NCBI RefSeq assembly: GCF_003790525.1
Contig: NZ_CP033635.1
Reading direction: 5' to 3' (one strand)
Length of the DNA stretch: 64,000 nt
DNA from: Escherichia coli
Lineage (GTDB): Bacteria > Pseudomonadota > Gammaproteobacteria > Enterobacterales > Enterobacteriaceae
Made by a program: the position numbers. Shown piece by piece: positions 31,401 through 34,400 of the stretch. How positions within the stretch are numbered: position 1 is the first letter of the stretch; every line of letters begins with the position of its first letter.

Positions 31401-34400
31401 GTTTCGATCATGCCGATTTTGTTGAACTCCAGCTCTTTTTGCATCAACGCGCGGAACTGTTGCCCGTGGGGGATCACCACAAACGCCAGCGACAATGTTT
31501 TAATCAACGGTGCCAGGTCCGGGTTATTCAGCACGTCGCCGATGAGATCACTCAACAAAAACACCGCCACACACACCACAAGCCCCAGCCCAACGTTCAG
31601 CCAGTACAGCGTGGTGAGTTCCAGGCGGCTGATTTCTTTTCGCTGAATAATGGAGTTAGCGATACCGAAGTCAGAAAGCGTATCTGCCAGCGCGATAATC
31701 ACCAGCGACACGGTAAGCAAACCGAACTGGTGGTTGTCGATAATCCGCGCCAGCACGGTCATCTGCACCAGCCCGAGGCCGATGATGATCACCGTGGCAA
31801 TCGCCGACCACTTCGCGCCGCTGATGGTTTTTTCACGTAAGCTCATATCAATATGCCGCTTTGTTAACGAAGCCTTTGAATACCGTCAGGAAAACGATTT
31901 TGATATCGAACCAGACGCTCCATTCGCGGATGTACTCAAGGTCGAACTCGACGCGTTTTTCCATTTTCTCCAGCGTGTCGGTTTCGCCGCGCCAGCCATT
32001 AATCTGCGCCCAGCCGGTAATGCCCGGTTTCACCTTATGGCGCAGCATGTAGCCTTCAATGAGCTGGCGATACTGTTCGTTATGCGCTACTGCGTGCGGA
32101 CGTGGACCGACAATCGACATCCCCCCGGTCAGCACATTGATAAACTGCGGCAGTTCATCCAGCGAGGTGCGGCGCAGAAAGTTCCCCACTTTGGTGACGC
32201 GCGGATCGTTCTGCGTCGCCTGGGTCACCACTTTGTCGTTCTCCATCACTTTCATCGAACGGAACTTCCACACTTTGATCGGTTTGCCATCCATGCCATA
32301 GCGAGTCTGGCGGAAAATAACCGGCCCAGGTGAACTGAGTTTCACCGCCAGCGCAATGCAGCACAGCACCGGGGAGATCAGCAGCAGGATAAGCGTTGCC
32401 AGCACAATGTCTTCTGCACGTTTTATCAGGCGGTTAACCCCGGAAAGCGGCGTGTCATACAGCGGCACCACCGGTACGCCGTTCATCTCTTCGATACGGG
32501 AATGGAGAATGTTGAAGGTAAAGACATCGGGGATCAGCAGCACCGAACAGGTGGTGTCCGCCAGTTGATGGACCAGTTTTTTCACTCGCGCGCCGTCGCA
32601 CATCTGCATCGCGATATAGACGTTATGAATCTTGCCCGCTTTCGCATCCTCGACCAGTTGTTGCAGATTGCCCGCCCAGTCGTTAGAAACGCCGCCCGGT
32701 TTCGGGTCGTGGTAAACGCCCACCACTTCAAACCCTAACCACGGCTGATTACGGAAGCTCTCCATCAGCATTTGTCCGGCGGCTAAATCCCCCGCCACCG
32801 CGACCATGCGCTTGTTATAGCCATGATTACGCAGCCAGCCCGCCCCAATGCGAATACATGAACGGCAAACCACCAGTCCGATACTGGTCAGCCCATACCA
32901 CGCCAGCCAGATTTTCAGTTGCGTGTCGAAATCATTGTTGAACGCCACCAGTCCGGCGCTGAAAATCACGCTTAAGGTCCAGTTTTGTAGCAACAGGGCA
33001 AATTCTGTCGCTGCCCGAACACCGCGCCATGAGCGATAAAAATCGGTGATGCCGCCCAGCATCTGGAACACCACCAGCGTAATCAGCGCCACCAACAGGT
33101 GCATGTAGAGGAATGACAGTCCGCTCACTTCGCAAACCAGCCATAGCCCGGCAAACATGATGGTGATATCTGAAAAGCGTTGCACCATAGAGATTAACGA
33201 TGCATTGGTTTTCGCTCGCTCGCGCTTTTTTAGATTTGTCATCGTTGTTCCTGTTATTAGCCCCTTACCCGCAGTGGGGTAAGGGAAGATCCGACATTAC
33301 TCGTTCAGCAACGTCAGCAGAGTTCGCGTTCGCGCTTCCATCAGCGGCACATCGCCGCGCGATTCCACATTCAACCGCACCACCGGTTCGGTGTTGGAGG
33401 AGCGCAGGTTAAAGCGCCAGTCGGCAAAGGTCATGCTGATGCCATCGGTGCGATCCACCGCCAGCGCCTCACGGCTAAAATGCTGTTCCACGCGGTTAAT
33501 CGCCTCAACGGGTTGCGCCAGTTTGCTGTTGATCTCACCGCTTGCCGGAAACGCAGCCATCCGGTCGCGTACCAGTTCGCCCAGCGTTTTCTCTTTCAGG
33601 CACACCAGTTCGGCGACCAGCAGCCACGGGATCATGCCGCTGTCGCAGTAAGCGAAATCACGGAAATAGTGGTGGGCGCTCATTTCGCCACCGTAGATGG
33701 CGTCTTCCTTGCGCATACGTTCTTTAATAAAGGCGTGTCCGGTTTTCGACATTACCGGGGTGCCGCCTGCGGCAGTCACCACATCAACGGTGTTCCAGGA
33801 GAGACGTGGATCGTGGATGATCTTCGCGCCGGGATTTTTTTCGAGGAACGCTTCTGCCAGCAGGCCGACAATGTAGTAGCCCTCGATAAACTGCCCTTTT
33901 TCGTCAAACAGGAAACAGCGGTCAAAATCGCCATCAAAGGCAATACCCATATCCGCGCCGTGTTTGATGACCGCATTGCGGGTGTCGTCGCGGCATTCCG
34001 GCAGTAGCGGGTTAGGAATACCGTTGGGGAAATTGCCGTCCGGCGTGTTGTGTACTTTGATTAATTCCACCGGTGCGCCGAGGGCTTTAAACCGGGCTTC
34101 AATGGCGTCCACCACCGGCCCCGCCGCTCCGTTCCCGGAGTTAATCACCAGCTTGAGCGGCGTGAGGTTTTTGACATTGATATAACCGAACAGGTGATCA
34201 ACGTAAGCGTCACGCAGATTGATTTGCTGATAGCGACCGCGTTTGGTTTCATCAACGGGAGGGAAGTCGTTGGCTTCTGCCAGACGCTGGACGTCGCGCA
34301 GTCCGGTATCCCCGCTGATCGGGCGGGCCCCCTCGCGCACGAGTTTCATGCCGTTGTAATCCATCGGGTTATGGCTGGCGGTAACTTCAATGCCGCCATC

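Follow-up and report, generated by a model that had tools for sequence, protein, structure and literature searches.

A conserved BoxC-like hairpin at the cpsG–wcaJ junction of the colanic-acid operon in Escherichia coli

Introduction

Does the stem-loop between cpsG and wcaJ in the colanic-acid operon of Escherichia coli end transcription, serve the mRNA in some other way, or merely fill a gap? A preliminary description of a 64,000-nt stretch of an E. coli genome (contig NZ_CP033635.1, assembly GCF_003790525.1; hereafter the window) had reported a perfect 9-bp inverted repeat with a 6-nt loop in the 54-bp spacer between these two co-directional genes, and had favored a role in RNA stability or processing over termination. 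The minus-strand location, the deep conservation and the kinship of the arms to BoxC blocks went unmentioned there. The operon is described as using RfaH antitermination (PMC9976346).

Two kinds of known element bear on the question. BoxC/PIT/TMECO elements follow the consensus CCCTCNCCC-N3-6-GGGNGAGGG-N3-GGGNGAGGG, and deletions in other strains have reduced palindromic TMECO pairs in such a way that a simple hairpin can still form (Holder et al. 2015, PMC4666352). The earlier tests cited in the same paper found neither promoter nor terminator activity for PIT/BoxC, nor a function. In addition, E. coli transcripts without intrinsic terminators end at steady state just past stable stem-loops that lack a U-tract and halt PNPase and RNase II (Dar and Sorek 2018, PMC6061677).

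Results

The two arms of the repeat, CCCTTACCC and GGGTAAGGG, are 100% complementary and span positions 33262–33285 with a 6-nt gap, as first reported, and the 54-nt length of the spacer and the shared orientation of its flanking genes, both on the minus strand, were likewise borne out (Table 1). The identities of cpsG and wcaJ were established with NCBIfam equivalog or subfamily models and the RefSeq annotation of near-identical E. coli genomes. In mRNA order the junction reads UAA-N10-U CCCUUACCC CACUGC GGGUAAGGG G-N18-AUG, for which RNAfold predicted a 10-bp stem in the sense mRNA, including an outer U–G pair, with a minimum free energy of −17.1 kcal/mol and with the wcaJ RBS unpaired. When perfect inverted repeats with arms of at least 9 bp and loops of 3–8 nt were counted, the window held 6 distinct ones, compared to 1.6 ± 1.3 in dinucleotide shuffles, and 12 of 20,000 shuffles of the spacer contained such a repeat. 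Taken by itself, the 54-nt spacer has a weak energy z-score of just −1.66, and the reality of the hairpin is therefore argued here from comparative data. A composition boundary at the cpsG–wcaJ junction was rejected, the GC content being about 0.55 on either side.

Table 1. Positions in the window of the hairpin, its flanking genes and related elements of the operon
Feature	Position	Strand	Remarks
wcaJ (undecaprenyl-phosphate glucose phosphotransferase)	31848..33242	-	downstream gene
cpsG–wcaJ intercistronic spacer, 54 nt	33243..33296	-	10 nt + hairpin + 18 nt with wcaJ RBS
wcaJ Shine-Dalgarno AGGAA	33248..33252	-	start codon 33240-33242; outside hairpin pairing; RBS block 95% conserved
Whole predicted RNA stem-loop	33261..33286	-	10 bp with outer U–G, −17.1 kcal/mol
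Hairpin 3ʹ arm in mRNA (GGGUAAGGG)	33262..33270	-	8/9 vs BoxC G-block GGGNGAGGG; consensus PMC4666352
6-nt loop CACUGC	33271..33276	-	varies most, both inside E. coli and from species to species
Hairpin 5ʹ arm in mRNA (CCCUUACCC)	33277..33285	-	8/9 vs BoxC C-block CCCTCNCCC; consensus PMC4666352
cpsG (phosphomannomutase)	33297..34667	-	upstream gene; hairpin after its 3ʹ end
Strict three-block BoxC/TMECO type A copy	30301..30334	+	wzxC–wcaK spacer, same operon
ops/JUMPstart core GGCGGTAGCGT	49227..49237	-	upstream of wza; where RfaH is loaded for the operon

No feature is annotated within the cpsG–wcaJ spacer in the K-12 RefSeq annotation. Rfam covariance models, run at a permissive E-value over 32000–34500, left the hairpin unmatched and gave four chance snoRNA-type hits elsewhere, with E values of at least 0.2. 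A literature search for a described cpsG–wcaJ stem-loop found none; its sole find was an attenuator after wzc.

With regard to termination, the GC-rich stem-loop of an intrinsic terminator is present, but the 7–8 nt U-rich tract is not: the 8 nt 3ʹ of the stem, GCUAAUAA, contain 2 U. A terminator and promoter scan of 32800–33800 made no call at the hairpin. In arrays of MG1655 exposed to colicin M, the log2 induction at 60 min was 5.15 for cpsG, 4.82 for wcaJ and 4.45 for wzxC (PMC3599342), a step of 0.33 log2 from cpsG to wcaJ in an induction that falls off gradually over the operon. Because the U-tract is lacking, the scan was negative and the arrays indicate read-through in MG1655, where wcaJ is co-induced with cpsG, an intrinsic terminator is unlikely, in agreement with the preliminary description.

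Of 5426 complete E. coli genomes, 4636 have the cpsG–wcaJ junction, and two spacer forms account for practically all of these junctions (4129 + 509 = 4638). The short form, with the 54-nt spacer, occurs in 4129 genomes at one copy each, and the spacer of K-12 MG1655 is identical to that of the window. A 60-nt spacer query returned a median of 1 place per genome, and the short hairpin was rejected as a dispersed repeat since it is single-copy per genome. Among eight sampled short-form variants, the changes fell mainly in the loop, which appeared in five versions, and in the flanks, while an indel affected an arm in one. The long form, in which a spacer of 135 nt separates cpsG and wcaJ, occurs in 509 genomes (about 11%), such as LR-29-1 and O26:H11 11368, and carries a dispersed repeat present at a median of 6 and up to 15 places per genome. 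This repeat, CCCTCGCCCCTTTGGGGAGAGGGCCGGGGTGAGGGG, is identical to a copy listed as ‘TMECO type B mm’ (PMC4666352), and a strict TMECO lies inside the cpsG–wcaJ spacer of both strains named.

To compare the junction across species, a scan of species-representative genomes was carried out, which gave 80 Enterobacteriaceae wcaJ loci, with 74 species-level loci having both genes. With the RBS left out, the spacers of 71 of these 74 loci (96%) folded at −12 kcal/mol or below, and in 67 of 77 spacers the stem ran for 8 bp or more without interruption. A hairpin was found in the orthologous position, with compensatory changes, in 73 of the 74 species; it was lost only in Citrobacter sp. MGH106, whose spacer is 36 nt long with the RBS unchanged. 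Two Citrobacter genomes in which cpsG is down to a 35-codon remnant still have the hairpin. The U-tract was absent in 72 of the 74 species, with a mean of 1.7 T in 8 nt.

The form of the hairpin differed among genera. Two-block hairpins of the CCCTTACCC, CCCTTGCCC or CCTTTGCCC types were found in Escherichia, Salmonella and Citrobacter, and those of the CCCCTCTCCC types in Leclercia, Lelliottia, Kosakonia and Silvania. Four-block ‘ccgg’ extended hairpins also occur, and Enterobacter, Kluyvera, Buttiauxella and others carry four- and six-block forms at this site, the latter being ‘ccg-cgg’ palindromic BoxC pairs; a few species have unrelated or REP-like palindromes at the junction. In the short forms the stem begins 3–13 nt past the stop codon, and its end lies 18–23 nt (median 19.5) ahead of the ATG. 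Long forms of 80–350 nt, with a very different architecture, occupy the same site.

The wzxC–wcaK gap of the same loci served as a control. It folded at −12 kcal/mol or below in just 26 of 74 cases (35%), and it is usually 15–33 nt long and unstructured (median 33 nt), with sporadic insertions of BoxC (14 of 74) or REP. In the window the gap contains BoxC, and K-12 has a BIME/REP cluster at this place instead. Palindromic repeats thus land opportunistically in the operon, yet the cpsG–wcaJ junction is almost always occupied.

When 14 spacers from Escherichia, Salmonella and Citrobacter were aligned, standard pairs made up 97.8% of the stem cells, and three of the ten stem pairs had changed on both sides, from A–U to G–C in 7 sequences, from C–G to U–A in 3 and from U–A to C–G in 1. 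The observed pairing/covariation score was reached by none of 500 shuffles, and when the partner was slid by 1–3 columns as a control, pairing was 44–66% and no double changes were seen. Identity to E. coli was 0.95 for the RBS block and 0.88 for the stem, compared with 0.58 for the four-fold synonymous sites of the flanking genes, 0.56 for the linker and 0.40 for the loop. The short form with the T/A signature is common to Escherichia, Salmonella and Citrobacter amalonaticus/sedlakii. As stem identity was 0.88 against 0.58 at synonymous sites, together with covariation, the short form predates the Escherichia–Salmonella–Citrobacter split and is constrained. The stem would accordingly be under purifying selection, or else subject to a very persistent correction of the palindrome at the DNA level. 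A bridging by CsrA of two GGA motifs that the hairpin would bring together was rejected, as the aligned spacers do not conserve the upstream GGA.

The sense RNA was more stable than the antisense RNA in 55 of 77 spacers, and the sense strand had the folding advantage in 19 of 25 genera (sign test, p = 0.015), with more G–U pairs despite a lower G+U content. The bias was not seen within Escherichia itself. Taken across genera, this is modest evidence that the hairpin may act in the mRNA.

With respect to the BoxC blocks, CCCTTACCC and GGGTAAGGG each agree at 8 of 9 positions and depart once, by C to T in one block and G to A in the other, and the departing bases pair with each other. The third block is missing from the hairpin, GCTAATAAC coming after the second block, and a pattern search of the window for three consecutive BoxC blocks gave a single match, the copy in the wzxC–wcaK spacer (Table 1), the hairpin consisting of two blocks. 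BoxC is a dispersed family with 23–32 copies in K-12, whereas the hairpin is single-copy. Owing to the lack of a third block and the single copy, the hairpin falls outside the formal BoxC definition. In the predicted RNA fold of the long allele (−59 kcal/mol), an outer stem of CCCCCUCACCCU and GGGGUGAGGGG closes two inner hairpins. The arms of the window correspond to this outer stem except for the C-to-T change and its compensating G-to-A change, with a 6-nt loop in place of an interior of about 80 nt. By its sequence, the hairpin appears to be a two-block relative of BoxC that matches the outer stem of the four- and six-block palindromes found at the same site elsewhere. Within E. coli, the BoxC-bearing allele of the 11% would more likely be a secondary replacement.

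Discussion

The element is an unannotated hairpin that belongs to known kinds, namely intercistronic protective stem-loops and BoxC-related palindromes, and it does not represent a new type of system. With BoxC/PIT/TMECO elements (Bachellier 1999; Hoyne and Maher 2000, 2002; Holder et al. 2015, PMC4666352) it shares the intergenic location and the ability to form hairpins and, as it seems, the vocabulary of 9-nt C- and G-blocks (CCCTCNCCC / GGGNGAGGG), and full palindromes hold this exact place in 509 genomes of E. coli as well as in many genera. It differs from them in lacking the third, triplex-forming block, in having one consensus mismatch per block, the two compensating each other, in being single-copy, and in its greater age and stronger conservation relative to typical BoxC copies. 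The cpsG–wcaJ locus exemplifies the relation between BoxC pairs and simple hairpins, and it further shows the hairpin form to be ancient, locked in position and constrained. The element is also distinct from REP/BIME, as its sequence is unlike the REP consensus (GCCGGATGCGGCG... / GCCTGATGCGACGC...) and it is single-copy, whereas REPs number in the hundreds.

By analogy with known stem-loops, we tentatively propose that the hairpin acts as an intercistronic decay barrier in the mRNA, making the segment from wza to cpsG, upstream of it, more stable than the distal membrane-protein genes, which we hold to be quite possible, if somewhat short of probable. RNA polymerase bearing ops-loaded RfaH would read through the hairpin, which has no U-tract. 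The distal transcript would then be lost, either through Rho-dependent termination or through endonuclease cleavage followed by 3ʹ-to-5ʹ trimming, and PNPase and RNase II would stall at the GC-rich 10-bp stem. As a result, the upstream segment ending in cpsG, with its sugar-nucleotide enzymes, would outlive the WcaJ/WzxC membrane-protein segment. The data show the structure of the hairpin, its position, conservation and compensatory evolution, its lack of a U-tract and its kinship with BoxC; the action at the RNA level and the exonuclease-barrier role are what we infer.

A precedent exists in the malE–malF intercistronic REP, which, in work by Newbury and colleagues from 1987, is said to shield the upstream mRNA from 3ʹ exonucleases and so to cause differential expression. 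Both elements are palindromic extragenic sequences between co-transcribed genes, with a soluble-protein gene upstream and membrane-protein genes downstream. They differ in family, REP/BIME in the one case and BoxC-like in the other, and the function of the window hairpin is one that we infer. Rahn and Whitfield reportedly described a stem-loop attenuator after wzc in 2003. In PMC2516531, such an attenuator is placed in group 1 capsule and colanic-acid clusters; it too is a hairpin in an RfaH-dependent polysaccharide operon, but it lies at a different junction and is described as a transcriptional attenuator, whereas the cpsG–wcaJ hairpin is without terminator features.

The stem-loops of Dar and Sorek (2018, PMC6061677) are the nearest likeness for the proposed barrier. 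Like them, the hairpin is a stable, U-less and GC-rich stem-loop downstream of a coding region, with stem and loop sizes like those of terminators, and it lies just after a stop codon. Those stem-loops, however, are located at transcript ends with mapped 3ʹ termini, whereas the window hairpin sits inside a read-through operon. The supplements of Adams et al. 2021 (PMC7815308), in the portions available, list no 3ʹ ends or processing sites for cpsG or wcaJ. The role in RNA stability or processing put forward in the preliminary description has gained from the selection on pairing, the sense-strand folding bias and the U-less stem-loop precedent, while the mapped 3ʹ end that would go with it does not appear for either gene in those supplements.

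Other explanations of the hairpin have to be weighed against a decay barrier. It might be a passive relic, that is, a collapsed or minimal BoxC-type palindrome in a tolerant gap, whose arms are kept by template switching or slippage at the DNA level. This would fit the neighboring wzxC–wcaK gap, which varies from BoxC in the window and BIME/REP in K-12 to nothing in most genera, as well as the one species that lacks the hairpin and the report of Holder et al. (PMC4666352) that TMECO pairs are cut down to hairpin-forming remnants and have no known function. Compensatory changes in a DNA palindrome could also arise through template-switch repair, with no selection on the RNA. A relic should, however, have decayed or shrunk to the 15–25-nt spacers seen elsewhere in the operon, yet 96% of species have the junction filled, compared with 35% for the control gap, and the same short T/A form persists in Escherichia, Salmonella and C. 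amalonaticus/sedlakii despite a synonymous identity of 58%. The excess of G–U pairs on the sense strand is likewise unexpected from upkeep at the DNA level. We consider such a relic unlikely, though not negligibly so. That the inverted repeat is a product of chance without biological meaning, as the z-score of −1.66 for the isolated spacer would allow, is exceedingly improbable in view of the 12 in 20,000 shuffled spacers with such a repeat, the 4129 short-spacer E. coli genomes that carry the hairpin and its orthologous, compensated presence in 73 of 74 species.

The hairpin may instead work during transcription, as a pause site or weak attenuator at the gene boundary that RfaH-modified polymerase overrides, tuning distal expression. 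The operon has an ops/JUMPstart site (PMC9976346), its expression falls along its length (PMC3599342), and PMC2516531 reports that this operon has a stem-loop attenuator past wzc. But the U-tract is absent here and in 72 of 74 species, the step from cpsG to wcaJ is small, and a hairpin-dependent pause was rejected, as the sequence 10–12 nt after the stem shows no pyrimidine–G motif. A pause or attenuator is therefore improbable in our judgment. Control of wcaJ translation, in which a hairpin 18–23 nt before the start codon would shield the RBS from upstream sequence or block ribosome re-initiation after cpsG, leaving WcaJ to be made at a low rate of its own, appears quite improbable as well. 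It would draw on the tight distance from stem to ATG in the short forms (median 19.5 nt), on the RBS that is unpaired in the predicted fold and on the two Citrobacter genomes that keep the hairpin beside a 35-codon cpsG remnant. The constant distance, however, may just reflect a compact spacer made up of a hairpin and a conserved RBS; the hairpin-less Citrobacter MGH106 has the same RBS, and long forms of 80–350 nt with an unlike architecture serve the same site.

A broader reading takes the junction as an obligate ‘hairpin slot’, filled interchangeably by two-, four- or six-block BoxC-type palindromes and sometimes by other palindromes. BoxC elements would then serve, in the form of RNA hairpins, as punctuation in operon mRNAs, with the simple hairpin as their functional core. 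We regard this as possible but doubtful. Since two-block forms cannot make the proposed DNA triplex, it is the Watson–Crick hairpin that would be the conserved feature under this reading. If true, it would provide a function for BoxC/PIT/TMECO, which has been unknown since the 1990s. One orthologous site offers a natural allelic series of simple hairpin, four-block and six-block BoxC with which to probe the role of BoxC.

The hairpin has remained unannotated, yet it is clearly constrained over roughly the divergence of Escherichia, Salmonella and Citrobacter and beyond. It may set the ratio of the sugar-nucleotide enzymes to the potentially toxic WcaJ/WzxC membrane steps in making colanic acid, which would be relevant to operon engineering. 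Other palindromes are present in the operon of the window: a REP-like hairpin at 45203–45294 corresponds to the post-wzc site, and true REPs occur elsewhere.

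Structured spacers and repeat elements in the colanic-acid operon

Beyond the cpsG-wcaJ junction, several spacers of the operon carry palindromic or hairpin-forming sequence (see the table). The cpsB-cpsG spacer is composed of two parts: the 5' part contains variable REP-like hairpins, while the sequence of the 3' part (UUGGCC...GGUCAGGGCCAACUAUUGCCUGAAAAAGGGUAA) is kept in about 60 species and possibly provides cpsG with a conserved RBS or leader structure. The wzc-wcaA spacer, in which a REP-like hairpin was found, is the site of a published stem-loop attenuator after wzc, cited in PMC2516531. 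The wcaD-wcaE spacer, with its long hairpin, is a further structured intercistronic gap of the operon.

The wzxC-wcaK spacer holds a strict three-block copy of the BoxC/TMECO palindromic repeat in the window, a BIME/REP cluster in place of BoxC in K-12 MG1655, and is bare (15–33 nt) in most other genera. The gap is thus a site where palindromic repeats land variably.

Structured and repeat features of the window, with window positions
Feature	Position	Strand	Remark
ops/JUMPstart core GGCGGTAGCGT	23787-23797	-	upstream of O-antigen genes
BoxC/TMECO type A copy, strict three-block	30301-30334	+	inside wzxC-wcaK spacer 30207-30367
cpsB-cpsG spacer	34668-34768	-	conserved 3' part, variable 5' part
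wcaD-wcaE spacer	41338-41462	-	125 nt; long hairpin CCCCAGAAGCGUACACGAGUACGUGACUGGGG
wzc-wcaA spacer	45203-45294	-	REP-like hairpin GCCGGAUAAGGCGCUCACGCCGCAUCCGGC
ops/JUMPstart core GGCGGTAGCGT	49227-49237	-	upstream of wza

Variants of the cpsG-wcaJ junction

Only an in-frame remnant of 35 codons is left of cpsG in Citrobacter youngae CCUG 30791 and Citrobacter sp. Cu233 (loci L013 and L014, in the region 2300-2500 of each), and both loci keep the cpsG leader motif and the pre-wcaJ hairpin. Among the species loci, a deletion of the hairpin occurs only in Citrobacter sp. MGH106 (L027, spacer before local position 2501), leaving a cpsG-wcaJ spacer of 36 nt with an intact RBS.

One record (L078) is titled Chryseobacterium sp. 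18061, yet it contains an Enterobacteriaceae-type colanic-acid cluster with a wcaJ identity of 82%, and probably reflects contamination or mislabelling.

Other elements in the window

Two ops/JUMPstart cores were found in the window; the one upstream of wza is the RfaH loading site for the colanic-acid operon. The remaining perfect 9-bp short-loop inverted repeats lie at 1502, 2725, 6982, 15286, and 63471. The repeat at 2725 lies within an ORF (1778-2836); the others, located between ORFs or just past an ORF end, might at a guess be terminators or attenuators.
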